A stretch of 64,000 bases of DNA from Spirochaetia bacterium (GCA_963668315.1 OY764216.1:5560498-5624497), one strand, 5' to 3'. Positions 20,547-53,377 are shown, counted from the first letter of the stretch. Notes: generated by a model not told the origin, from the letters alone. A program made the numbers and translations.

Positions 20547-23500
20547 TCACGCCGACTGCACATCAGGCGGCGCTGGTTTGGCCTTCGCGCCGAAGAAAGC
20601 GGAAACGATGACGAAGAACAGGGGAATGAAGATCAGGTCGATGAAGGTGGCCGAGAGCATCCCGCCCGTGACGGCCGTTCCGATGCCATTCATGGCCCCG
20701 GCGCCGGCGCCGGTGGCAAGGGCCAGCGGCAGGGTGCCGAAGAAGAAGGCCAGGGAGGTCATGATGACCGGGCGGAAACGGATTCGAACGGCCGACAAGG
20801 TTGCCTCGATGAGCCCTTGGCCCTGCCTCATTTCTTCCTGGATGAACTGGATGATCAGGATGGCGTTCTTCGTCGAAAGTCCGAGGGTGGTCAGGAACCC
20901 GATCTGGAAGTAGACGTCGTTCGACAATCCTCGCATCGAAGTTGCCGCCAACGCGCCGAACACGCCCAGGGGCAACATGAGCAGGTTCACGAAGGGGATC
21001 GTCCAGCTTTCATACAGGGCGGCCACGCAGAGAAAAATCACGAGGATCGAGAAGGCGTAGAGGAGCGGGGCCTGCGCCGTCGACATTCGCTCCTGATAGG
21101 AGATCCCCGTATAGTCGTAGCCGATGCCCGAGGGCAACTGGGCGACGGCTTCCTCCAGGGCCTCCATGGCCTCCCCCGTACTGTGCCCGGCCGACGGTTC
21201 CGCCAGAATGTTGAGCGATGGGAATCCGTTAAACCGCTCCAGACGCGGGGAGTTGGACGACCAACGTCCGGAGGCGAAAGCGCTGTAGGGCACCATCTTG
21301 CCTTCTTGATTGCGGACGTAGACTCTTTCCAGGTCCTCGGGCAACATGCGATAGGGCGCGTCGGCCTGGACGTAGACACGTTTGACACGCCCGTCTTTGA
21401 TGAAGTTGTTCACATAGGAACTGCCGAAGGCCGCCGAGAGGGTCGTGTGGATCGACGTGATCGGGACCAACTGCGCCCCGGCGGCGTCCTTATCGACGTC
21501 GATGCGGTATTCCGACACGTCCTCCAGCCCGTTGGCTCGCACCGTATGCGGGTTGAGACGCGGATCTTTGCGGGCCAGTTCCAGAAACTGATCGCGAGCC
21601 GCCATCAACTCGAGGTGGCCCAGCCCGCCCCGATCCACCAATTGAAAATCCACTCCCGTCGCATTCCCCAATTCACTGACGGGAGGCGGTGGGAAGGCGA
21701 AGAACATCGCGTTGCGGAGAGAGGACAAGGCGCCCATGGCACGTCCGGCAACGGGGCCGGCTTTGAGCTCCGGACGGTTTCGTTCGGCCCAGTCCTTCAA
21801 TTTGACGAACACCATGGCGCTGTTCTGAGACCGGCCCGCAAAACTGAATCCGCAGATGGTCATGCAGGAGGCGACCGCCTCTTGCTCGTGCTCCTGGAAA
21901 TAGGCGGCCACTTCGTCCGCCATTTCCTGGGTCTGTTCGAGAGTGCTTCCCTTGGGCAGCGAAAGCTGGCAGAAAATCATCCCCTGGTCCTCGTCGGGGA
22001 GGAACGAACTGGGAAGCTTGACATACAAATAACCCACCGCCGTGACGATGACCACGTAGATGAACACATAACGCAGCTTCTTCGCCAGCGAGTGGCCGAC
22101 CAATCCCACGTAGCGATCTCGGATTGCGAAGAAGATCCGGTCGAACCAGCGGAAGAAGGGGCGAAGGAAGAAGATCGCGTTTTCGCTCGGCTCGTGGCCT
22201 CGCACCACGGGGCGGAGGAAGGTCGCGCAGAGCACCGGCGTGAGGATCAGGGCGACCACCACCGAGAGCATCATGGCGGCGATGATCGTCACGGAGAACT
22301 GGCGATAAATCACCCCTGTTGAACCGGGGAAGAAGGCCATGGGGCCAAACACGGCCGACAGCACCAGTCCAATGCCGATCAGGGCACTCGTGATCTGGTC
22401 CATCGACTTGGCGGTCGCTTCCCGCGGCGGCAGGCCTTCTTCGGCCATGATCCGTTCCACATTCTCGACCACGACGATCGCGTCGTCGACCAGGAGCCCG
22501 ATGGCCAGCACCATGGCGAACATGGTGAGCATGTTGATCGAATAGTCCAACGCCCCCAACACGGCAAAGGTGCCCAGAAGCACGACGGGCACTGCAATCG
22601 TCGGAATCAGGGTGGCCCGGATGTTCCCCATGAACAGGTACATGACCAGGAACACGAGCACCACGGCCTCGAACAGTGTCTTCACCACCTCTTCAATGGC
22701 CACTTCGATGAAGGGCGTGGTCTCGTGAGGGTAGATGACCTTCATCCCTTCCGGGAAATAGCGGCTCATCTCGTCGAGCTTGGCCTTGATGGCGTTGGCC
22801 GTATCGAGGGCATTGGCCCCGGGGGCCTGCCGAATCGCAAGTCCCGCGGTCGGCTGGCCATTGAAGAAGACTCGGATGTTGTAGGCTTCGGTTCCCAGTT
22901 CGGTTCGTCCTATGTCCTTGATGCGGATAATCGAGCCGTCCGGGTTGATCCGCACCGGAATGTCGGCGAATTCATCCGGGGTCTGCAGCAGGTTCTGCAC
23001 CACGATCGACGCGTTGAGCCGTTGCCCTTCCACCGCCGGGGCTCCACCGAACTGCCCGGCGGAAACCTCGACGTTGTAGTTCTGAAGCGAGGCGATTACG
23101 TCTTCCACCGTCAACTGGTATTCGGTCAGTTTGTCGGGGTTCAGCCAAACCCGCATGGCGTACTGGGTCCCGAAAGCCATCACCTCTCCCACGCCAGGGA
23201 CGCGGGCAAGCACCTTCTCCAGGTTCGATTGGGCATAGTCGCGCAAGTCGTTGCCGTCCATGCTGCCGTCTTCGGAAGTCAGACCCACGATCAACAGGAA
23301 GTTTCGCGTCGACTTGTTCACGGAGACGCCGGATCGCTGCACGACTTCGGGCAAACTGGTCATGGCCAGTTGCAGCTTGTTCTGCACCTTGGCCCATGCC
23401 AGGTCGGGATCCGTTCCCGGCTTGAACGTCAACTCGATGCGAGAGGAGCCGGACGAATCGCTTGTGCCCGACAAATACAGCATGTCGTCGAAACCCGTCA

Positions 23501-23708
23501 TCTTCTGTTCGATGATCTGGGTGACGCTGTTCTCGACCGTCTCAGCCGAGGCTCCCGGATACATGCAGTCGATGGCGATCGATGGCGGAGCGATCGGGGG
23601 ATACTGGGATATCGGCAGATGATAGATCGCCAGGCACCCCAGCACCATCATGATGATGGCAATCACCCAGGCAAAAACGGGACGATCCAGGAAAAATCTC
23701 GAAAGCAC
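20547..23708 (-). CDS. acrB: Multidrug efflux RND permease, HAE1 family (AcrB/MexB-like)
   Basis: MLSRFFLDRPVFAWVIAI, QYPPIAPP, YPGASAETV, AIGLLVDDAIVVVENVER, RFRPVIMTSLAF; 1053 aa. Confidence 0.95.
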   Translation of the reverse strand: MLSRFFLDRPVFAWVIAIIMMVLGCLAIYHLPISQYPPIAPPSIAIDCMYPGASAETVENSVTQIIEQKMTGFDDMLYLSGTSDSSGSSRIELTFKPGTDPDLAWAKVQNKLQLAMTSLPEVVQRSGVSVNKSTRNFLLIVGLTSEDGSMDGNDLRDYAQSNLEKVLARVPGVGEVMAFGTQYAMRVWLNPDKLTEYQLTVEDVIASLQNYNVEVSAGQFGGAPAVEGQRLNASIVVQNLLQTPDEFADIPVRINPDGSIIRIKDIGRTELGTEAYNIRVFFNGQPTAGLAIRQAPGANALDTANAIKAKLDEMSRYFPEGMKVIYPHETTPFIEVAIEEVVKTLFEAVVLVFLVMYLFMGNIRATLIPTIAVPVVLLGTFAVLGALDYSINMLTMFAMVLAIGLLVDDAIVVVENVERIMAEEGLPPREATAKSMDQITSALIGIGLVLSAVFGPMAFFPGSTGVIYRQFSVTIIAAMMLSVVVALILTPVLCATFLRPVVRGHEPSENAIFFLRPFFRWFDRIFFAIRDRYVGLVGHSLAKKLRYVFIYVVIVTAVGYLYVKLPSSFLPDEDQGMIFCQLSLPKGSTLEQTQEMADEVAAYFQEHEQEAVASCMTICGFSFAGRSQNSAMVFVKLKDWAERNRPELKAGPVAGRAMGALSSLRNAMFFAFPPPPVSELGNATGVDFQLVDRGGLGHLELMAARDQFLELARKDPRLNPHTVRANGLEDVSEYRIDVDKDAAGAQLVPITSIHTTLSAAFGSSYVNNFIKDGRVKRVYVQADAPYRMLPEDLERVYVRNQEGKMVPYSAFASGRWSSNSPRLERFNGFPSLNILAEPSAGHSTGEAMEALEEAVAQLPSGIGYDYTGISYQERMSTAQAPLLYAFSILVIFLCVAALYESWTIPFVNLLMLPLGVFGALAATSMRGLSNDVYFQIGFLTTLGLSTKNAILIIQFIQEEMRQGQGLIEATLSAVRIRFRPVIMTSLAFFFGTLPLALATGAGAGAMNGIGTAVTGGMLSATFIDLIFIPLFFVIVSAFFGAKAKPAPPDVQSA

Positions 23709-23763
23709 CGTGGGACTCCGTCAGTTCGATCAAGGGGGGCGGGGCGGGACCAGCCGATTGCGT

Positions 23764-25071
23764 TCAGAGAGCAGCTTGGGCCGTGTCGGCGGCGTCCGTC
23801 GTGGCCGCAGGTTGGGGGTTGAATGGGATTGCTTTGACCGTCGAATTCGGACGCGCCTTCTGACTGCCCTCGACGATCACCTGGTCACCTGCGGCAAGCC
23901 CGGAAGAGATCAGCCACTTATCACCCAACGCTCGATCCGTCACGAGCGCTCGTTGCTCCACTTTCCCTTCGGCGTCCACCACCAGGGCGGTTGGATTGCC
24001 TTTGGGATCACGATGCACGGCCTGTTGGGGAACAAGAATGGCTTGCTCATTGACGCCCTCCTCGACCACGGCGCGGACGAACATGCCCGGCAGGAGAATT
24101 CGATCCGGATTGGGAACCTCGATCCGCACGATCACCGAACCGGTCGTGGGATCGACGGTCACGTCGCGAAACTTGAGGGCTCCCTCGATCGGAAAGACCG
24201 AACCGTCCTCCAGGAGGATCTTGACCTTGTCCGTGCCAATGTCTTTCAACGAACCGTGGCTCATCCTCTGCCTCAGACGGGTCAGTTCCGCCGTCGATTG
24301 AGGCACGTCCACGTAGATCGGATGGAACTGCTGAATTGTGGCCAGAGGCGTTGCCTGATAGGCCGTGACGATCGCTCCCTCGGTCACCTCCGAGCGACCA
24401 ATTCGCCCAGTGATCGGAGCAACGATCCTGGTGTAGTCCACGTTGATGCGGGCCGTTTCAACAGCGGCTTTGGCCTGCTCAATGGCGGCTTCGGCTGCCT
24501 TGACGGCTTCACGTTGGCTCTCCACCTCGGCCTGGGCCTCCTTGAGAGCGGCATCGGCCACCTCGACATCGGCAACGGCCTGGTCGACTTCCATTGCCGA
24601 GACCGCGTCCGTCTTCACGAGCTTCGTCTTGCGATCCCGATTGGTGATCGCCAGATTGAGGACCGATTCGAACTTCTTCAAACCGGCGATGCTCGCTTGA
24701 AGGGCCGCCTTGGCCTGCTCGGCACTCTGCTTCGCCGAAGCGGCCGTGGCCACCGCACTATCGTAGGCCGCCTGGTAGGGGGCGGGGTCGATCTGGTAGA
24801 GGAGATCCCCTTTTTCCACGTCGGCCCCTTCCGTGAAGAATCGCTTCTGGAGCAGTCCGTTCACCTGGGGACGGATTTCCGCGATCAGGAAGCCCGCCGT
24901 TCGCCCCGGCAGTTCCGAGGTGAGCAGCACCGATTGAGGCTCAACGGTGACCACCGACACTTCCGGCGGACCGCCCGGAGGCGGGCCTTGGGCCTCCCGA
25001 TGACAACCTGCCAACGGGAAAATCGCTGGCAGGACCAGCAAAACAGTAGCTCTTAACGTGTGCCGATGCAT
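23764..25071 (-). CDS. acrA: RND efflux periplasmic adaptor subunit (AcrA/MexA-like)
   Basis: Lipobox LAGC; LPGRT..AEIRPQVNG, LYQIDPAPYQA, APITGRIGRS, VDPTTGSV, LLPGMFV. Confidence 0.93.
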   Translation of the reverse strand: MHRHTLRATVLLVLPAIFPLAGCHREAQGPPPGGPPEVSVVTVEPQSVLLTSELPGRTAGFLIAEIRPQVNGLLQKRFFTEGADVEKGDLLYQIDPAPYQAAYDSAVATAASAKQSAEQAKAALQASIAGLKKFESVLNLAITNRDRKTKLVKTDAVSAMEVDQAVADVEVADAALKEAQAEVESQREAVKAAEAAIEQAKAAVETARINVDYTRIVAPITGRIGRSEVTEGAIVTAYQATPLATIQQFHPIYVDVPQSTAELTRLRQRMSHGSLKDIGTDKVKILLEDGSVFPIEGALKFRDVTVDPTTGSVIVRIEVPNPDRILLPGMFVRAVVEEGVNEQAILVPQQAVHRDPKGNPTALVVDAEGKVEQRALVTDRALGDKWLISSGLAAGDQVIVEGSQKARPNSTVKAIPFNPQPAATTDAADTAQAAL

Positions 25072-25155
25072 GGAAGTGCTCCAGAAAACCAAAACCTGCT
25101 ATCAGCCGATTAAACACCGCCGAGTCCGCGAACGGACCTCTCGCAATCATGCCAA

Positions 25156-25776
25156 TCAACCGATTTGTCTCTTCTCCACCGAAATCCCATTCAGGAACGT
25201 ATTCAAAATCAACCGACAAAGCGCTTCCCTTTGTTCCGGCTCCTCAAGCGGTGGTCCGCTTCTCAGCACTCCCCGGCAGAGCCCGAAATACATGTGGGCC
25301 ATCATGGCCGGATCGCCTGGTTGAAATGCTCCTTCGGCAATCCCCTGGCGAAACAAACGCTCAAACTGCTTGCTGACCGCATCCGCCGTCCGACGCACCG
25401 AGGACTGGAGGAGACTGTGGGCGTTCGCGTCATCGAAAAGGAGCCGGTGAGCTCTCAAATGCCGCGCTATGTGATCGAAAAACCAGCGAAGCTGTTCGGC
25501 CAGCTTCTCAACGGCCGGTTGCTTCCGGCCCGCCAACTCCTCAAAAACCTCGAAGACGGGTTCCGTCAACTTGGCATGAACAAACTCCAGGAGATCCCTC
25601 TTGCTGTGGAAATATCGATACAGGCTCCCTTTGGCCACCCGAGCTGCCGATGCCACCCGGTCCATGGTCATGCCTTCTGCGCCGTGTTGGTCGAGAACCG
25701 AAATGGTCGCTTCGAAAAACGCCTCTTTCATCAGTCCGTCGACGGCCTGTTTTCGTATCTCCGTCAGTCTAGGCAT
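25156..25776 (-). CDS. TetR/AcrR family transcriptional regulator
   Basis: HTH GMTMDRVASAARVAKGSLYRYFHSKRDL; GGAGA RBS; first gene of the efflux operon. Confidence 0.92.
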   Translation of the reverse strand: MPRLTEIRKQAVDGLMKEAFFEATISVLDQHGAEGMTMDRVASAARVAKGSLYRYFHSKRDLLEFVHAKLTEPVFEVFEELAGRKQPAVEKLAEQLRWFFDHIARHLRAHRLLFDDANAHSLLQSSVRRTADAVSKQFERLFRQGIAEGAFQPGDPAMMAHMYFGLCRGVLRSGPPLEEPEQREALCRLILNTFLNGISVEKRQIG

Positions 25777-25804
25777 ATCCTCTCCCTTCTTGCCTCCTAA
25801 GTCT

Positions 25805-25833
25805 ATTTTGCCGACTGGCCAGTCAGTTTTCAA
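25805..25833 (-). promoter_or_regulatory. Promoter of the tetR-acrAB operon with a palindromic operator in the spacer
   Basis: Minus strand TTGAAA-17 nt-CAAAAT; perfect palindrome GACTGGCCAGTC at 25813-25824. Confidence 0.6.
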
Positions 25834-26331
25834 GACCCCCGGGTCTAACAAGAGGGACGAATGCGCCTTTTCCGGTTAGGACAAGATTGTCGTACAGATT
25901 GTGCGGCCTGGGTCGACGTACCGCCCACCAGACAATTCTCCTCCAATGGGTGGGGATAGCGTACGCTTCAAGTTCGGTACGCTTTGGTGACCGGGCAGTC
26001 ACACGGGCTGGATGAATGGCGATCGCTTCCGTGCCGCGGGGCCAACCATCCCGTTCAACTACCCCAGAACATCTGGGACACCGGGGCGCTGTTCAAGGTT
26101 CTCCCATACCGCTTCAGGGGCAGACCAAGCCGGCTCGGTTCCCTGAACCACGCGTCTTGGGAAGGTCGCCCCAACAACGGAACACCGCCAGCCCTGGTTC
26201 TCCGGTGCGGCGGATTTCTCGGCATAAGTCGTGTGCCCTTCGATACTTGCTTGTCCTCTGGCGTTCTGGCTATACTGCAACCGCTTCACGGGGCAACGCA
26301 CGAAACCACTTCCTTGGGCGGAGATATTCCC

Positions 26332-28594: not shown

Positions 28595-28755
28595 GCTCTG
28601 TTTCAAAACTCAAGGTGCCGGGCTTCGAGCGGCTGCACGAGCCATCCGCTGCGTTGTCCTGCATCGACATATGTCCAATATGCCTGCTTCGAACGCCTTG
28701 CGGACTGGCTCGTTCGCTCGCTCTCGGGCCTGCGGCAGACTTTTCAAACAGAGCC
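28594..28755. mobile_element. 162-bp MITE, TA-flanked (copy A)
   Basis: TIRs GGCTCTGTTT / AAACAGAGCC with TA on both sides; near-identical to 34240-34401. Confidence 0.85.
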
Positions 28756-28948
28756 TAGGACGCATCAGGAGTCCGACTCTTGAAATGGGGCGGCTCAAAG
28801 CGTTTACACGGCGGGTCGTGTATGGCATAACAGGAGGAAGCCTCGCGGCCTTGTTCATGACCGGAAACGCAAGCCCGGGGTGTTGGTGGGAACCAGGCGG
28901 CAAGACGCCGAGCGACACTCCTCTTTCACGGTTCGTGCGGTGTGAGCG

Positions 28949-30979
28949 ATGAATATCGCCTTCCAATGTCCCGTATGCGGGAAACGATACGAAGTGCCCG
29001 GACATCAGGCGGGCGCGCAGGTGATCTGTGCCGGCTGTCGGCGGACAATCCTGGTGCCACGCCCCGCGGCTTCCCCGTCGCTGGATCGCCCCCGCCGGAC
29101 ACGCCTTCCCCATAACGAGGGACCGAGCCGAACGGCAATCTTCGTGGCGGTGGGAGGCGCCGGTGCACTCGTGGCGGTGATCGCGGCTCTCGTCTTCGTT
29201 CTAACCCGAGAGGACCAAACGCCGGCCTCGTCCGACCCGCCTGCCCAGGTGGAGACGCCCCCTGCGGACACGAACCGCCTGGCCTCACGCCTCGCCCCCC
29301 TGATGCACGCCGACAAACGCTCCGAAACCGAACCGTCAAAGCCCCCGGAGAAGCAGGACACCCCGTCATTGGAGGCGGCTTCGGCCGACACGACAGAGAC
29401 CGCCGACAAGAGTGACGAGTCGCCTTCGCCAATTCCGGCCCCCACCGGCGACGCTTATCCACTTCGCGTGGCCGATCACGAACCCGTCACTTTCGGCGCC
29501 GCGGGATGTCCCATCGTGGTCATCGGCTCGAAAGTCTGGGACTATCAGAAGAAAACGGTGCGCTCCACCCTCGACGGCAAGTACGACGATAGCAGTCTGA
29601 CCGCCCTGTCGCCCGACGGACGCTATTTTGCGGCCACGGAACAGTCGGCCCACCACCGCAACAATCCCGTGCTCGTCTGGGACACCTCGACTGGCCAACT
29701 CTGCACACGCATCCCGGGAGATACGGCCGCCGGAGTCGGGCTTCTCCATCTGGCGGGCGGGCGAGCCTTCATCGCGCCCGCTCATTCCAACCGCTTGTAT
29801 GTCTGGGACCTGGCGGAAGCTCGCGAGTTGAAGTCGCTCACATTGGCCGAAAGCCGGCTCACGCCGGGCAACACGGCGATCGCGCACAATGGACTGTATG
29901 TGGCAACGATCGAGGATCGCAAACTCGTCGTGATCAAGATCGAGACGGGCGAAACCATCGTGAAGATGCGGGCGCCAAAAAAACGCGAGAAGCCTCGGGG
30001 CCCCGAACTTCCACCCGGAATGGTCCGAGTCGATCACGGGGGCTGGATCGTCGATAACGTGGGAGAGGCCGCCGACGACAGCGAGTGCAGCTCGATCTAC
30101 TCGTCATTGAAGGCCCTGGACTTCTCCCCGGACAGCCGTGAGTTGGTGGCTGTTTCCACATATCCCCAGCCCCGGGTCATCTGCTGGAACCACAAGGGAC
30201 GTCGAGTGCTGGATGAAACGCTCCATTCCGACCGAGACTTGCACGAAACGCGGTCGATCCACTGGTTTGGCGAAAAAGACGCGTGGCTGCTTGGAACCGA
30301 CCTCTTCGACCGTAAGGCGTCGAAGGTCGTGCTTTCCGTCCGCCGATCGTTCCTGCACACACCCACGATTCACGTTCAGGACGACAATCACCTGGTGGGC
30401 ACGTTCTCCAGCAAACCCAACGAGATCCAGACAGTCGCAATCCCCTGGGACGCTATCCGGGCATCGCTCGAAGACCTGGAGAAAAAGGCTCCCGCACTGC
30501 TCAGCCCGGCCGAGCCGGTGAGTATCGTCTTCGAACTCGGCTCGCTCCGGGGCGACCAGAACAAGACCGTCCGGGAACTCGGCGATGCCCTCAAGGCGAG
30601 ATTGGAGAAAGACGGGCTGGAAGTGGAAAGCGGGAAGAGCACGTTCTTCCGAATCCGTTTCTCGGAAAAGGCGGGTGACTCGGTCCCCGTTTACGAACGC
30701 CAGTCCCCATTCCATTGGGACGATCGCGATACGGGCCAGCGGGTTCATGAAGCCGAAGGCAAACTGGTCGTCGAACTGGTCGTGCCCGGCCGGGATCAGC
30801 CGGTCTGGCGAGATACCCTGGCCGCCGGCTCCGACTCGTCCTACGATGGCAACGTCACCGAACTGGTCGTCCGCGACAGCATGGTGGAAAACCTGGCCAA
30901 CCGGATGGACGACCTGAACTTCCCCTACTTCATTCCCAAATCCGACGACCTGCTGGCGCTGCCGGTCGTCCTCCAGTGA
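28949..30979 (+). CDS. Zinc-ribbon + TM + WD40/beta-propeller domain protein
   Basis: CPVC..CAGC N-terminus; hydrophobic helix; propeller-like motifs ALSPDGRYFA, VWDTSTG, LDFSPDSRELVA. Confidence 0.8.
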   Translation: MNIAFQCPVCGKRYEVPGHQAGAQVICAGCRRTILVPRPAASPSLDRPRRTRLPHNEGPSRTAIFVAVGGAGALVAVIAALVFVLTREDQTPASSDPPAQVETPPADTNRLASRLAPLMHADKRSETEPSKPPEKQDTPSLEAASADTTETADKSDESPSPIPAPTGDAYPLRVADHEPVTFGAAGCPIVVIGSKVWDYQKKTVRSTLDGKYDDSSLTALSPDGRYFAATEQSAHHRNNPVLVWDTSTGQLCTRIPGDTAAGVGLLHLAGGRAFIAPAHSNRLYVWDLAEARELKSLTLAESRLTPGNTAIAHNGLYVATIEDRKLVVIKIETGETIVKMRAPKKREKPRGPELPPGMVRVDHGGWIVDNVGEAADDSECSSIYSSLKALDFSPDSRELVAVSTYPQPRVICWNHKGRRVLDETLHSDRDLHETRSIHWFGEKDAWLLGTDLFDRKASKVVLSVRRSFLHTPTIHVQDDNHLVGTFSSKPNEIQTVAIPWDAIRASLEDLEKKAPALLSPAEPVSIVFELGSLRGDQNKTVRELGDALKARLEKDGLEVESGKSTFFRIRFSEKAGDSVPVYERQSPFHWDDRDTGQRVHEAEGKLVVELVVPGRDQPVWRDTLAAGSDSSYDGNVTELVVRDSMVENLANRMDDLNFPYFIPKSDDLLALPVVLQ

Positions 30980-31206
30980 TCTCTGCGCGACCGGTTCAAC
31001 TTCTGCCCATGGACTTCTTCTGCGACGGGAATCCGACGTAAGAGCTGAAGTGGTCCTGACTTCGGCTGTTGGAACACACAACGCTCGACACAAGACCCCG
31101 CATTCGTTAGAATGCCGTCACCGGCCGGAAGAAGGGGGGCGTTCCTTCTGGTGCTGGCACATTTTTGGGGATTGTTTCCAACCTTCTAGCGGGAAAGGCG
31201 GTGCTT

Positions 31207-32940
31207 ATGCGAAGAGCCATTTGCTGCTTCGGATGGGGGGTCGTGGCGATAGGCCTTCTGGGACCTGTCGCCCATGCAAACGGAGAGAGTTGTTCCCTTG
31301 AGATGAAAAAGGTGGACACCTCGAACACGTCGAGCGACACCCGCCTCTATCGGGCAACCTCGTCTCAGAGTTTCTATCACCCTGTCGCACGCGGTGTCCG
31401 CGTCCGCGACAACTCGGCGCAAGAATTCGCGGAAACGATCAAGAAGGAGCCGGAGGCCTATCGGGCCGAGTTTCCCGTTCGGGGCGTCGTCAAGTTCGGG
31501 ACGCTGAAGTTCGGCTATGCGCTGGACACATCGGTTGAACCGGTGAAAGAAAAGGAAGACAAGGCCGACGCCAAAGAGGCGGAGGAGAAGAAGTCCGAGA
31601 GCGTCCTGTCGGCCCTCTCCAAGGTTTTGACGGGTGACACCAAGAAGGCGGAGGAAGAAACGACGCCCTTCAAACCGGTGCCCTACGATCGCCTCTACAT
31701 CGACACCGATCGCGACGGCGACCTGACGGACGAAGAAGTGATCGAGGCTTCGTCGACGAGAAACGACAGCAACAACCGCTACTACTCATGCAACTTTCCC
31801 CGAATCGATCTTCCGATTGAGGTCGAATCCGTTCCGGTCGACTATGCCATCACCCTGAGCACGATGGCCTACGGCGACGACAAGTTCGGCTATGTCAACG
31901 GTTCGTTCCAAGCCGGAGCCTACCGGGAAGGTGAAATCACCCTCGACGGCAAGAAACGCCGCCTCGTCCTGATCGATTTCAACGGCAACGGGCGCTTCGA
32001 CGACCCGTCGACCTTTCGTGATTCAGCCGGCTCCTCCAGCGAACGCGTTTACACCATCCGCGGAGATCGACTCTACGTCGACCCCGACATGAACGCCTCC
32101 GGACGAAGCGCCTACGATGTGACCAGTGCGGACGATATGTTCGCCGTAGGCTCGTTGCTGTGCCTCGACGGGAGGTTCTACAAGATGACCGTCTCTCCTT
32201 CGGGGGACAAGCTGACCCTGGAGCCTGCCGACCTCGACGTGGGCTATGTGACAAACGCCGTAGGAAACTACCGCGCTGTCATTTACGGCGACCTCGGCCT
32301 CATCAAAATCCAGTCGGACGAGTCGGGCAAGGCGCCCGTGCCGGCCGGTTCCTGGAAACTGATGAACTATACCCTCGATCGAACCGGGTATGAGGAGAAA
32401 AAGGCCAAGGAAAAGAACGAAGAACCGTCGATTCTGGGCGTTCTCACGGAAGCCCTGGGAACGGACGACAACGGAAGACCTCCCCGCCGCACCGTCGTGG
32501 CTGCCAGCGGGACGAACCGCTACAAGGCGGTGGATGTGAAGGAAGACGAAACCGTCGAGTTGCCCTTCGGACCTCCGTACCGCCCCGAGGTAGACGTCCA
32601 GTATCGCAGAGGCGCCGACCAGGTGTCGCTGGGGATGTCCCTCGTCGGCTCGGCGGGAGAAGTCTGCACGAGCATGTACGTGAACGGGAGTCGTCCCGGG
32701 AAGCCCCAGTTCACCATCACCGATCCGGAAGGAAACAAGGTGGCCGAAGGCGTCTTCGAGTATGGCTGAGGCTTCACTTGCCGGTACTCGTGGCGAGTAC
32801 CTTCGGACCCGGCCGACGAATACACGATTCAAGTTCGCATGAACGCTGGCCCCTTCAAGATCGACAGTGAACACAAAAGCGTCCTGAAGAAGAGCGAAAT
32901 CGCTCTCCCGAAGGCTGCACAGGCCAGACCGGCCACTTGA
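31207..32940 (+). CDS. Putative secreted selenoprotein (in-frame UGA at 32767-32769, U-x-x-x-C motif); ends at 32769 if the UGA is a stop
   Basis: Signal peptide; DxDxDG-type motifs; FEYG-TGA-GFTCRYSWRVP... open for 56 more codons; SECIS-like hairpin 32783-32801; terminator only after 32940. Confidence 0.75.
32783..32801 (+). promoter_or_regulatory. Candidate bacterial SECIS element
   Basis: Perfect stem GGTACTCG-(TGG)-CGAGTACC starting 14 nt after the UGA, with G in the apical loop. Confidence 0.7.
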
Positions 32941-32952
32941 ACCAATCCCCTG

Positions 32953-32988
32953 ACGCCGGGAGGTCCTCGCGACTTCCCGGCGTTTTTT
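32953..32988 (+). terminator. Rho-independent terminator
   Basis: acgccgggaggtc / gacttcccggcgt stem followed by a T-run. Confidence 0.8.
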
Positions 32989-33142
32989 AGTCAAACGCAC
33001 TTCCCCGCAAGCGGCGCTTTCGCCGACGGTCCGGGAGAGTGTCTTGCTCTCTACCTGAACTGAATTCCAGCGGGAACAGGGGATATGAGCGGAGCAATTC
33101 TGCGCCCACGCCGGCATCCCGTTCCCTGAGTAGGAGACGATT

Positions 33143-34222
33143 ATGCAACGTATCACTCTGACGGTCTGGATCCTGTTGATGTCTGTGACGGTTCCCTATG
33201 CGCTGAGCGAAGATTCAGCCGCGGAACAGAAAACTCCGGAACTGCCGATGCGGGACGACTTCGATTCGAAACTCTCCCTTCCCTGGAACATCGTTCGGCC
33301 TGATCCAACCCATGTGTCGCTTGAATCGCATCCCGGCAAGCTGACGATCACGACCCAATTCGGTTCGATTCACATGGCCAAGACGAGCGCCAAGAATCTC
33401 TACTTCCTCGATGTCCCCGACGGGTTGACGGACTTCGTGGTTACCACATGTGTGGAAGACTTCCTGCCCATAAAATCGTGGCAGCAGGCGGGCATCATGT
33501 TTCACAACGATGACGACACCTTCATCAAATGGGTCCGCGACTACACCGGACAGGGCTATCCCGTTATGAACGTGAACTGGGAAATCAACGGGGAAAACAA
33601 GGGGGTCCACTCGTCCATCGAAGTAAGCAAGAAGCAGTTCTGGCTGCGGACGATCAAGCGAGGGAACGTCTACCAGTTCCTCGCGAGCGAAGACGGGAAG
33701 ACCTGGACCACCCACTTCGTGGTTCCCTGGGGCGACGGCAAGTTGAAGAAGGTGGGCCTCGTCGCGAAGAACGGGCCAACGCAAGGCGACATGGAGGCCC
33801 AGTTCGACTTCTTCGAACTCCGCCGGCCCACCAAGCAGGAGTTGGACGATCCGGTCTATCCGCTACGCCGGGCCTTGTGGGGCAGTTGGAAAGCGGTCGA
33901 GCGGAAGATCAACGGAAAGGAGGTTGCGAAGGGGCCCGTCACGCAACTGAGCATTGTCCCAGGGCGGATGACCCTGAAAGAAAAACGCGCCCTGCCCTGC
34001 GCCTACACGGTTGACCTGACCGTAACCCCCAACCGCATTACGCTGTACCCCCTGAATCTCGGCGTCGGACCCCAGCTCAACGGACTGTTTGCTCTTGACG
34101 GCGACACGCTCACGCTCTGCCTCAACCCCAAGCCGGGCGGGGAAACCCCCGGTACTCTGGAGCCCCAGGAGGGCGACGGGAGTCTGTTCATGAAGTTGGA
34201 GCGGGACAAGGCCGCGAAATAG
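33143..34222 (+). CDS. Secreted ConA-like (DUF1349/beta-xylosidase C-terminal-like) + TIGR03067 domain protein
   Basis: AGGAG RBS; signal peptide; DDFDSKLSLPW, WQQAGIM, WLRTIKRGN..SEDGKTW, FDFF; then LWGSWKAV..GLFALDGDTLTLCL. Confidence 0.75.
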   Translation: MQRITLTVWILLMSVTVPYALSEDSAAEQKTPELPMRDDFDSKLSLPWNIVRPDPTHVSLESHPGKLTITTQFGSIHMAKTSAKNLYFLDVPDGLTDFVVTTCVEDFLPIKSWQQAGIMFHNDDDTFIKWVRDYTGQGYPVMNVNWEINGENKGVHSSIEVSKKQFWLRTIKRGNVYQFLASEDGKTWTTHFVVPWGDGKLKKVGLVAKNGPTQGDMEAQFDFFELRRPTKQELDDPVYPLRRALWGSWKAVERKINGKEVAKGPVTQLSIVPGRMTLKEKRALPCAYTVDLTVTPNRITLYPLNLGVGPQLNGLFALDGDTLTLCLNPKPGGETPGTLEPQEGDGSLFMKLERDKAAK

Positions 34223-34239
34223 CAGCCACCCACGAACTA

Positions 34240-34401
34240 GGCTCTGTTTCAAAACTCAAGGTGTCGGGCTTCGAGCGGCTGCACGAGCCATCCGCTGCGT
34301 TGTCCTGCATCGACATATGTCCAATATGCCTGCTTCGGACGCCTTGCGGACTGGCTCGTTCGCTCGCTCTCGGGCGTGCGGCAGACTTCTGAAACAGAGC
34401 C
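34240..34401. mobile_element. 162-bp MITE, TA/CTAG-flanked (copy B)
   Basis: TIRs GGCTCTGTTTCA / TGAAACAGAGCC; near-identical to copy A. Confidence 0.85.
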
Positions 34402-34889
34402 TAGGCCGTCAATTCGTAGACGGGTTCATCATCGGCTCGCGGCTCGTCCGCGAGCCGTTTCTCGTCTCGAACCCAGTCGTCGTGCGTGTAGATCACCACG
34501 CTCGTGTCCGTCTCCCGGATTTCCAACCGGTCGAGCCGAAAACCGAAGTCGGTGATCTCCGTGAACAGCTTGCAGGCCAGGTTTTCGACCGACGTGGGAC
34601 CCTCGAACCGCTTCATCTTGAGACATTCGCCCGTCCGCTGGGTGTGATGGGCAAGCGTCTCATAGAGGGGATCGTTCACGTTGATCAGCAGGCCGTGGTC
34701 GTACTCCTCCTTCAGAAAGGGCTCGATCACGTCGTCGAAGTCGCCGAAGAGGGTGGACACGGCGCCCTTGCGCTGCACCTCGAAGAAACACGAGATGCCG
34801 TAACGATGCCCGTGGAGGTTGCGACACTTGTCGGCCAGTTCCTCGTTTCGATGGGCGGCGTAGAACTTGTAGTCTTTGCGAATGATCAT
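34401..34889 (-). CDS. queD: 6-carboxytetrahydropterin synthase (QueD/PTPS family)
   Basis: KFYAAHR..CRNLHGHRY, YDHGLLIN, PTSVENLA, IRETDTS; downstream of folE. Confidence 0.88.
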   Translation of the reverse strand: MIIRKDYKFYAAHRNEELADKCRNLHGHRYGISCFFEVQRKGAVSTLFGDFDDVIEPFLKEEYDHGLLINVNDPLYETLAHHTQRTGECLKMKRFEGPTSVENLACKLFTEITDFGFRLDRLEIRETDTSVVIYTHDDWVRDEKRLADEPRADDEPVYELTA

Positions 34890-34909
34890 CTCCGAGCCCT
34901 CCGGTTCGG

Positions 34910-35545
34910 TCACGATTTGTGAATCAACGCCATAATCTCGGCGCGGCTTGCCGGGTTCTCGCGGAAGACGCCTCGCAGCGCGCTGGTGACCGTCGAACTT
35001 CCGGGTTTCTTGACCCCCCGTATCGACATGCACGAGTGTTCCGCTTCGATAACGACGGCGACACCGGCCGTCTGCAGCTCGGTCTCGACCAGGTTGGCTA
35101 CCGTTTCGGTCATCCGTTCCTGGACCTGGGGCCGCCGGGCGACCTCTTCCACGACCCGGGCCAGCTTGCTCAGCCCGGTCACACGCCCGTTGGGCAAGTA
35201 GGCCACGTGGGCCACGCCCTGAAACGGCAGCAGGTGGTGTTCGCACATGCTCGTGAACGGAATATCCCGTACCAACACAACCTCGTCGTAAGTTTCGGGA
35301 AAGGTCACGTGGAGATGGCGTGCCGGATCCGTCTTCAGCCCGGCGAACATCTCCGCATACATCTTGGCAACGCGGCGGGGCGTCTCCTGCAAGCCCGGCC
35401 GGTCCGGATCTTCTCCGACAGCCTTCAGAATCGTTCTGACTGCCCCCTTGATGGCCTCCAGGTCAACCGCTCCGGCCGAATCGGTTCCAGGGTTGGGACG
35501 GGTTCGAGCCAAAGGGGTTTCCGGATACTGCAACGCTCGCAACAT
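34910..35545 (-). CDS. folE: GTP cyclohydrolase I
   Basis: [67 protein letters not shown]. Confidence 0.95.
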
Positions 35546-35814
35546 GACGATCGCTCCTTTGTTCGGTTTTCGCACGCATTCTTGGTCTCTTCTCCATCGG
35601 TATCTGGAGCAATCATCGCGTCGCAGCTGTTTTTGACAACAGGAGTTGCTAAAAATATGCGAGCGGAGCATGCTCCCTGTCTTGAAGTCTCGACGTAACC
35701 GACTGTTAAATCGCTTGTTACGTCATCAAGAAGGCCGCGCCCAAGTCATCCTTCTTCGGGAAAGCCACATCCCGGAGAACGCTGGACATCTGAAAATTCG
35801 TCCAAACCGTTCGG

Positions 35815-52513: not shown

Positions 52514-52523
52514 ACGGGGGCTT

Positions 52524-52875
52524 CAGCCCGGCTGCTACCGTTGGCTTCGGAGGAAATGTTGCGGCGACAGCAACCGGGTGATCCGCAGCCGGGCTTCTGA
52601 GGTCGGCGGCAATTGAGAAGAAGAGCCGGGCTACCTCCGCTACCTCCACGAATAAGCTGCCCGAGTATGAGGTGGTTCATTCAAGAGCCCGGCTATTCCA
52701 CAGCAGCCCGGCTGCTACCGTTGGCTTCGGAGGAAATGTTGCGGCGACAGCAACCGGGTGATCCGCAGCCGGGCTTTTAAGGTCGGCGGCAATTGAGAAG
52801 AAGAGCCGGGCTACCTCCGCTACCTCCACGAATAAGCTGCCCGAGTATGAGATGGTTCATTCAAGAGCCCGGCTA
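52524..52875. repeat. Tandem 180-bp REP-cluster repeat (agcccggct family), 2 units
   Basis: Units at 52524 and 52704 are nearly identical; same REP motifs as 17640-18005 but different spacers; between convergent genes. Confidence 0.88.
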
Positions 52876-52882
52876 TTGCGGT

Positions 52883-53377
52883 TCAGCACCCCAGCGTCTT
52901 GGCCGTGTTGAGCCAATGAAGCTCGCCTTTCCCTGGCGCCACCCTATCTTGAAATTCAATTGCGGCGACGGCGCCCTTCGCGAAACGCATCCAGTCCTCG
53001 TCATTCCCAATCAACGCGGCGGCAAAATAGCCCACGTCGGGGGCATGCCCCACCACGGCAATCTGGTCAAACTCGGCAAACTGAGAGTTGATCCACCGCA
53101 GGAGATCGTCTGGATCGCCCCCAGGGGCCAGTTCGTCGAGAGCGGTAACGTCGGGGCGGGAAGGCAAGAGTTGCGCGATGAGGTCGGCCGTTTCGCGGCA
53201 GCGCGTGTAGGGGCTGGTCGCAATAGCTTGAGGAGAGAATCCTCGCTCGGCCAGAAGCGGGACGACCTTGGAAAAGCGGGCTTTTCCCTTCTCCGTCAGG
53301 GGGCGCAGGGTGTCATCGGGCCATTGCGGATCACCAAAGTAGCTGGCCCAGGCGTGGCGCACGACATAGAGCATCAT
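52883..53377 (-). CDS. sixA: Phosphohistidine phosphatase SixA family
   Basis: LYVVRHA, RPLTEKG, TSPYTRCRETA, VVGHAPD. Confidence 0.88.
   Translation of the reverse strand: MMLYVVRHAWASYFGDPQWPDDTLRPLTEKGKARFSKVVPLLAERGFSPQAIATSPYTRCRETADLIAQLLPSRPDVTALDELAPGGDPDDLLRWINSQFAEFDQIAVVGHAPDVGYFAAALIGNDEDWMRFAKGAVAAIEFQDRVAPGKGELHWLNTAKTLGC

Follow-up and report, generated by a model that had tools for sequence, protein, structure and literature searches.

The gene at 31207-32940 of the window (the whole 64,000-nucleotide stretch of DNA analysed here, from whose first letter all positions are counted) very likely belongs to a family of selenoproteins from uncultured planctomycetes that is large, has apparently not been described before and is predicted to be exported, and in which an in-frame TGA is, on the sequence comparisons set out below, very probably decoded as selenocysteine (Sec). 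We propose, with a probability of roughly one half, that it is the founding member of an unrecognised Ig-like selenoprotein superfamily of anaerobic Planctomycetota, with up to nine copies per genome, which would form the extracellular arm of a new pathway together with a membrane ferredoxin, a small membrane protein ending C-P-T-U (CPTU), a double-cubane reductase and a methyltransferase.

The frame that opens at ATG 31207 reaches a TGA at 32767-32769 after ...VFEYG and, as an earlier note on this DNA had claimed, continues beyond it as GGC TTC ACT TGC (G-F-T-C), then RYSWRVP, running for 56 further codons to a second TGA at 32938-32940. With the UGA read through, translation of the window gives a product of 577 aa with U521 and C525, in agreement with the length and the Sec521-x-x-x-Cys525 pair given in that note; the motifs it had named, DTDRDGDLTD and DFNGNGRFDD, are found at residues 166-175 and 257-266. 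Its placing of the terminator after 32940 and not after 32769 also holds, the sole terminator-like site in 30900-33200 being 32952-32984 with its T tract. The peptide VPSDPADEYTIQVR is an example from the C-terminus of the read-through product. The TGA is not a sequencing error, because an 85%-identical orthologue in the Thermoguttaceae metagenome-assembled genome (MAG) G038 has the same TGA. The features of the locus are:

31085..31113, + strand: predicted sigma-70-like promoter, a sequence match to the consensus (TCGACA-17-TAGAAT)
31207..32940, + strand: full gene, 577 aa, with the in-frame UGA as putative Sec521 (translation, homologues)
31207..31284, + strand: predicted signal peptide, about residues 1-26 (hydropathy peak; cleavage near A-x-A/G before a conserved ETxxLELK)
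31702..31731, + strand: DTDRDGDLTD, Dx[DN]xDG-like, predicted Ca2+ site (motif and conservation)
31975..32004, + strand: DFNGNGRFDD, second Dx[DN]xDG-like motif (sequence; weak Pfam GEVED match)
32551..32892, + strand: predicted C-terminal Ig/macroglobulin-like beta-sandwich with U521-G-F-T-C525 on a beta-hairpin tip (AlphaFold2 model, fold searches)
32767..32769, + strand: in-frame TGA, putative Sec codon (homologue conservation)
32779..32781, + strand: Cys525, putative Sec partner (invariant in 48/48 close genes; absent from some distant members)
32783..32801, + strand: bSECIS hairpin GGTACTCG-TGG-CGAGTACC, loop 21 nt past the UGA (folding, covariation)
32938..32940, + strand: true stop codon (homologues stop 41-66 codons past the UGA at TAA, TAG or TGA)
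32952..32988, + strand: intrinsic terminator-like hairpin and T tract (fold z -4.48)

Within DTDRDGDLTD, residues D166, N/D168, G171, D172, L173, T174 and D175 are kept in at least 90% of 149 alignment rows; from its resemblance to the Dx[DN]xDG motif it is predicted to bind Ca2+. The Pfam GEVED match over the second motif (residues 256-282) is weak and borderline, with 24.4 bits at the cut-off.

A phmmer search returned 1,223 matches at E <=0.001 among 50%-identity cluster representatives, and 142 of the best 150 of these end exactly at F-x-[YFWC]-G. The databases end the homologous proteins at FEYG, and what is added here is a large family truncated at that point. Three of the remaining eight are apparently frameshifted, with tails that represent the UGA context in another frame, and the other five lack the TGA and continue into the same downstream strands. 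Of 201 genomes sampled from Thermoguttaceae, the family of G038, 76 contain homologues; among the 150 matches listed from these genomes (133 more are unlisted), every one that spans the site contains TGA followed by the conserved GxxCxYSWRVP. When the codon was left free in a motif search, TGA was found in 32/32 rows. In a sample of the phylum the C-terminal module was matched in 39/401 genomes, and 72 domain hits inspected, a set that leaves out several weak phylum matches, comprise 68 with TGA at the site, two with Cys, one with Glu and one fragment. The earlier note had suggested looking for conservation of TGA and of a downstream GxTCxYSW; TGA and the downstream GxxCxYSW are conserved in many planctomycete genomes, and the contrary pattern it had described, TAA or TAG at the site with no coding sequence beyond, was not seen among these homologues. 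As an indication of breadth only, since the features were preselected, a pattern demanding TGA, Cys and hairpin matched at least 127 metagenome stretches; 80 of these read GGTC (28), GFTC (13), GGVC (13), GGSC (10) or other variants (16). One homologue named at NCBI is from Candidatus Omnitrophota.

These data bear on the opposing view that the UGA is a true stop, or encodes Trp, Cys or Gly, and that the downstream stretch is a conserved RNA element or a separate ORF. This view can point to the truncation of the protein at FEYG in all databases and to an assembly that lacks selA, selB, selC and selD. It is nevertheless very improbable: the codon at the site is TGA, not TAA or TAG, Cys aligns there in SelA-negative genomes, homologues lacking the TGA stay in frame across the same strands, truncation at the UGA would remove three strands of the predicted sandwich, no UCA-anticodon tRNA except tRNA-Sec was seen in the cluster loci, and the assembly is chimeric, as described below.

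Decoding as Sec is further supported by the hairpin, which begins at the fourteenth base after the UGA and consists of 8 bp closed by a UGG loop, so that the perfect stem with a G in its loop reported earlier is confirmed. PMC13188914 gives as bSECIS criteria a loop of 3-9 nt, G in the first two loop positions, a stem of 4-16 bp, a distance of 16-37 nt from the UGA and an MFE <=-7.5; the window hairpin agrees with these in its loop (UGG), stem (8 bp), distance (21 nt) and energy (-16.1 kcal/mol for a 44-nt segment). Folded by itself it lies within chance (z -1.6; 13/200 shuffles fold as well), and its significance derives from conservation and covariation in homologues, not from the single-sequence fold. 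In an alignment of 48 close genes, restricted to rows that have a stop at the site, 97.7% of stem cells are paired, and compensatory changes occur at three pairs even though they alter the protein (S>L with R>Q, S>P and Y>H, turning YSWRV into YLWQV, YPWRV and HSWRV). Rare codons are forced by the stem: CGA accounts for 44/46 Arg against a background of 10%, and GTA for 41/48 Val against 5%, the sole alternative to GTA being GTG, which retains a U-G wobble. An alignment of 44 genes, hand-picked for diversity from 67 references and the first alignment, with near-duplicates, three small degenerate ORFs and one gene carrying an inserted codon set aside, gives 86% pairing with 24 compensatory cells, against 25-59% for slid controls; none of 500 shuffles reached this, although such tests are inflated by the relatedness of the genes. 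The position of the stem holds even where its sequence has entirely changed (L100-L109). The covarying hairpin that the earlier note had proposed as a check is therefore found.

The distribution of the Sec machinery points the same way. Among the 201 Thermoguttaceae genomes SelA is encoded by 75/76 carriers of the family against 66/125 non-carriers, and in the phylum sample by 33/34 TGA carriers against 290/401 genomes overall; the one exception (G301) has SelB. Homologues with Cys at the site, also among the suggested checks, exist and are rare: FEYSCGGVC (L091, L093), in which the hairpin is lost, and FTAGC (P0137). The former come from G310 and G463, two incomplete and related MAGs in which SelA and SelB were not found and whose best tRNA-Sec scores are 48-51 bits, against 75-81 for true hits. 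A search of JGI metagenomes for the Cys form YGCGFTC gave 84 pattern matches, none of them a relative. According to the deep-Sep report (PMC12013277), selenoproteins without Cys homologues can be filtered out, and the rarity of Cys forms may explain why pipelines have missed this family.

The apparent absence of Sec machinery from the host requires separate treatment. The window's assembly, G000, is a single contig of 5.62 Mb rated 97% complete and 1.6% contaminated, in which SelA and tRNA-Sec were not found and nothing scored as SelB or SelD above the cut-off, and homologues of the gene are present in 0/37 genomes of the family/order to which it is assigned. However, the last 195,584 bases of G000 have 60.6% GC, compared with 51.0% elsewhere, and a different 4-mer profile. 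The window, which lies entirely in this part, is colinear with G038 at 88-91% identity and has only tiny matches to the assembly's own kin. The body of G000 encodes three FlaA proteins, and FlaA is typical of spirochaetes. The junction is at G000:C1 5,428,913/5,428,914 (L060:8913/8914), where contigs obtained from three runs of one sample break and each side continues into other sequence; depth falls more than 10-fold across the junction, from 60/183/189 to 4/17/17 in these three runs, a fourth (X2) giving no cover at that point. Composition, 4-mer profile, colinearity and the depth break together identify the window as a mis-joined planctomycete fragment, and because this tail is foreign the remainder of G000 is uninformative on the Sec machinery of the window's host. 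The earlier note had held that a host lacking selABC would count against a selenoprotein. That absence is real for the assembly and is an artefact of the join to a non-planctomycete chromosome; the nearest relative, G038, keeps the TGA and hairpin and encodes SelA, SelB, tRNA-Sec and SelD. A test as simple as asking whether the genome has selABC was thus misled by a chimeric long contig with favourable quality ratings, and other windows of the tail should not be interpreted against the remainder of G000.

The window copy is a stand-alone paralogue outside the sel/double-cubane cluster described below. Its 66%-identical orthologue in G168 directly follows selA-selB and has the same downstream gene, encoding a DUF1349/GH43_C2 protein (window 33143-34222), which adjoins paralogues in both G038 and G168. 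Upstream lies a gene for a zinc-ribbon/TM/WD40-like protein (28949-30979). Judged by inspection, 34401-35671 contains queD-like and folE-like genes, 39465-43192 genes for a multiheme cytochrome and for molybdopterin/Fe-S proteins similar to alternative complex III, and 20547-25851 a TetR-MFP-RND efflux set. Two copies of an intergenic repeat of ~180 bp, likened to REP or MITE elements, are present at 52520-52890, and dozens of copies with 70-84% identity are spread across G038. Similar intergenic stretches at ~28670-28950 and ~34250-34400, with near-identical spurious ORF starts (MSNMPAS[ND]ALRTGSFARSRACGRL...), are probably another repeat element.

The AlphaFold2 model of the whole protein, with C in place of U, is nearly all beta (pLDDT 91.7, pTM 0.88). 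Its last domain, an Ig/macroglobulin-like sandwich, contains strands only (pLDDT 92.5); U and C lie on either side of a beta-hairpin tip, and the sequence past the UGA contributes three strands. Among MG/FnIII/Ig-like domains, the fold searches rank Salmonella alpha-2-macroglobulin highest (Z 8.2, rmsd 5.0, 96 residues aligned, 12% identity), tied with many unrelated Ig-like domains; the match is generic and says nothing on function. Foldseek gave low-TM matches only, a PDB sequence search with the 149-row profile gave none at E 1, and the ESM Atlas gave hypothetical planctomycete clusters only and, for the TM part, nothing at >=0.9. Pfam offers no function beyond the borderline GEVED match, and NCBIfam none. 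A thioredoxin fold was considered and rejected, given the strands-only model, the lack of a Trx Pfam match and the U-x3-C spacing; the 50 fold matches listed are all generic Ig-like and include neither nDsbD nor thioredoxins.

The protein is predicted to be exported: an N-terminal hydrophobic stretch is present in 122/132 homologues and the window protein has no later TM segment. The Sec module occurs in three layouts, namely long secreted proteins with Dx[DN]xDG motifs, such as the window gene product, short secreted proteins of ~220 aa, and proteins in which the module is joined to a multi-pass membrane domain. Membrane-anchored forms are among the up to nine family matches per genome, and Sec is thereby placed on a predicted Ig-like fold in both exported and membrane-anchored proteins. 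The module precedes the multi-pass domain in the paralogues at L063:4822-6543(-), L073:3451-4944(+), L078:12170-13657(-) and L042:1698-3056(-), and this domain matches no known family and has no invariant Cys. Fusion of the N-terminal scaffold to a redoxin domain was found neither among 120 proteins listed nor at 20 loci of five genomes; 14 of these scaffold loci comprise 11 that end at the Sec module and three that are apparently frameshifted or off-frame.

Such an architecture could suit a structural selenoprotein of the envelope, in which stable Se-S or Se-Se cross-links, within or between molecules, would strengthen a calcium-binding surface layer or adhesin. The all-beta multi-domain model resembles adhesin, S-layer and macroglobulin domains, and the Dx[DN]xDG motifs and the coexistence of secreted and membrane-anchored forms agree with this idea. 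We consider it unlikely, as a structural protein would not be expected to track a double-cubane reductase, an activase and a methyltransferase of the cytoplasm so closely, and copies without both U and C survive. Seven full-length copies (P0128, P0144, P0146, P0083, P0161, P0162 and L098, the first six being those weighed here) have lost the TGA together with both residues, one of them being fused to a BlaR1/M56-like domain; they are possibly non-redox derivatives.

A stronger, if still tentative, competitor accepts the selenoprotein and makes its selenol a non-catalytic, high-affinity ligand in an exported chaperone for a soft metal or metalloid (Cu, Hg, Ag, As or similar), which would pass its cargo to the membrane paralogues. 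Among distant members Sec is better conserved than its partner Cys, which several TGA-containing genes lack (L094, L103, L104, L107, L108; the spacing is changed in L105), and for these, binding by one selenol fits better than a selenenylsulfide cycle. Paralogues are numerous and vary in their N-termini, which suggests a repertoire for binding, and for the selenocysteine-assisted organometallic (SAO) system of Haft and Gwadz a use of Sec as metal ligand is proposed (10.1101/2022.07.06.499078). The Ig-like metal-binding proteins CrdA and P19/Tp34 are among the tied fold matches (Z 6.3-6.6), but these scores are not above background. The invariance of U-x3-C in 48/48 close genes, the presence of a third Cys (ExC) in ~110/142 homologues and the co-encoding of a quinol-dehydrogenase-like ferredoxin and a CxxU protein also argue against this proposal.

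The genomic context of the family offers candidates for the remaining components of the proposed pathway. In 13 genomes, picked because selA lies near a family gene, a recurrent cluster has selB-selA divergent from genes for a SAM methyltransferase, three HGD-D proteins, a BadF/BadG activase, SelD and a NapH-like 4Fe-4S protein, along with tRNA-Sec (11/13), a small membrane protein ending C-P-[TS]-TGA-x-x-stop and one to three family genes. One of the three HGD-D proteins in G038 exceeds the NF040772 double-cubane cut-off. A survey not preselected for proximity to selA found an NF040772 gene in 62/76 carriers, 14 having no match, against 2/125 non-carriers, counts that are not independent as the genomes are related MAGs. 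Frequent neighbours of the module in distant planctomycetes are selA/B/C/D, to which the reductase set, the CPTU gene or the NapH-like gene is sometimes added, some stretches having none of these three; in several, family genes adjoin selAB with no reductase in the stretch examined. The sequences as a whole place the window gene in a large superfamily of many paralogues, whose Sec domain is predicted to be Ig-like and which is tied to a double-cubane/sel gene cluster.

The small membrane protein, CPTU, is a second candidate selenoprotein, of ~120-220 aa, membrane-anchored and Pro-rich, with no Pfam or NCBIfam match; its loci are L041:19196-19624(-), L043, L044, L047-L056, L063-L079, L111 and L119, and a hairpin of its own is found 12-15 nt past the TGA in 22/22 distinct loci. 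Many of these hairpins lie past the stop, directly after AGGAGG, and include the start codon (ATG) of the gene that follows, in most cases the NapH-like one (L063:10215-10277(-), L075:10327-10389(+), L079:6624-6686(+)), and Sec insertion is possibly coupled to downstream translation. Short degenerate ORFs reading YG-TGA-GIACRYSRRVP, their hairpin intact and its loop changed, are found between the NapH-like and family genes (L063:8705-9031(-), L064:5840-6238(+), L065:11233-11634(-)); each may be a relic or a small selenoprotein. At L043:12340-13920(-) and L042:1-1566(-) the SelD of the cluster has Cys, not Sec, in its active site, is extended at its N-terminus by a Cys-rich stretch (GHCICDPKKxCPC...CPC) and ends in a CMD/AhpD domain with CxxC.

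The constancy of selA, selB, selC and selD as neighbours across the phylum, which no other genes exceed, raises the question of whether the family serves selenium metabolism itself. Exported selenoproteins could trap selenite or selenide as Se-Se or Se-S adducts and feed the linked SelD, whose fusion to a Cys-rich N-terminus and a CMD/AhpD domain would suit such a role, with the CPTU SECIS over the next start codon as a possible selenium sensor. This scavenging scheme is improbable: about half of non-carriers (66/125) have SelA without the window family, and the clustering is also explained by co-transfer of a Sec-dependent pathway with the machinery on which it depends.

The functional model that we prefer, at the even odds given at the outset, instead joins an exported Sec/Cys arm to membrane re-reduction and cytoplasmic double-cubane/methyltransferase chemistry. 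SelB bound to the hairpin likely decodes the UGA as Sec. In the model the Sec521-x3-Cys525 pair, on an exposed Ig-like hairpin held out by a stalk of N-terminal Dx[DN]xDG beta-domains presumed to be calcium-stabilised, would cycle between selenol/thiol and selenenylsulfide. In doing so it may capture and reduce, outside the cytoplasm, a soft compound containing S, Se or a metal(loid). The outer arm would consist of the Sec protein together with its paralogues; its re-reduction from the quinol pool would fall to CPTU and the NapH-like 4Fe-4S protein in the membrane, and the last chemical steps to the ATP-activated double-cubane reductase and the SAM methyltransferase in the cytoplasm.

The N-terminal domain of DsbD is an Ig-like periplasmic dithiol shuttle with C-x5-C spacing. 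It offers a parallel in idea, a redox pair on an Ig-like beta-hairpin that is re-reduced from the membrane, and differs from the window family in spacing (U-x3-C here), in the lack of a sequence match and in that no Cys is invariant in the TM part of the membrane paralogues. Thioredoxin-fold selenoproteins (Trx/Prx/TlpA, UxxC, UGC, UGSC) likewise place Sec near Cys and have a likely redox role, whereas the Sec domain of the window protein is predicted to be all-beta with U-x3-C spacing. In common with bacterial selenoproteins generally, as described in PMC13188914, the family has a UGA followed by an in-frame bSECIS hairpin, Cys homologues and co-occurring SelA/B/C/D. Its U-x3-C motif (G-U-G-x-x-C) and Ig-like domain are absent from the 119 families in Table 1 of that source, where no UxxxC motif appears, some rows listing no motif. 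The read-through protein matches 0 families of NCBIfam 20.0 at E 0.1; these results agree with the earlier note, which did not recognise the protein as any classical selenoprotein family. The GUxG family NF049953 was rejected as a candidate, with no match over cut-off and none at family loci in five genomes. No description of the family was found in the literature; an earlier mention is possible in Haft and Tolstoy 2025 (mSystems; selenoprotein neighbourhoods), whose families were compared through Table 1 of PMC13188914 and NCBIfam, in the SAO supplements or in BSepDB.

Among the closest known systems is SAO, a multi-selenoprotein locus of anaerobes that is, like the planctomycete cluster, tightly linked to an NF040772 double-cubane reductase and its activase; its description reports that double-cubane proteins track SelD and the SAO selenoprotein system, and describes the physiological substrates of double-cubane enzymes as unknown (10.1101/2022.07.06.499078). 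Planctomycetes are not mentioned in the available portions of 10.1101/2022.07.06.499078, PMC13326102 or PMC13745706, and 17 representative neighbour proteins gave no match to a Sao model (SaoX/B/P/A, SaoL, SaoC, SaoT, SaoE, SaoD). Unlike SAO, the planctomycete cluster has no ABC transporter or MerB-like lyase among its conserved genes, and has instead three HGD-D proteins, a methyltransferase, a NapH-like protein, SelD-CMD and predicted exported Ig-fold selenoproteins. If the proposed model is true, it provides a physiological context, and hence a route to substrate, for double-cubane enzymes, and the near one-to-one profile of the family with the double-cubane cluster would add a second selenoprotein system, independent of the first, that is tied to such enzymes.
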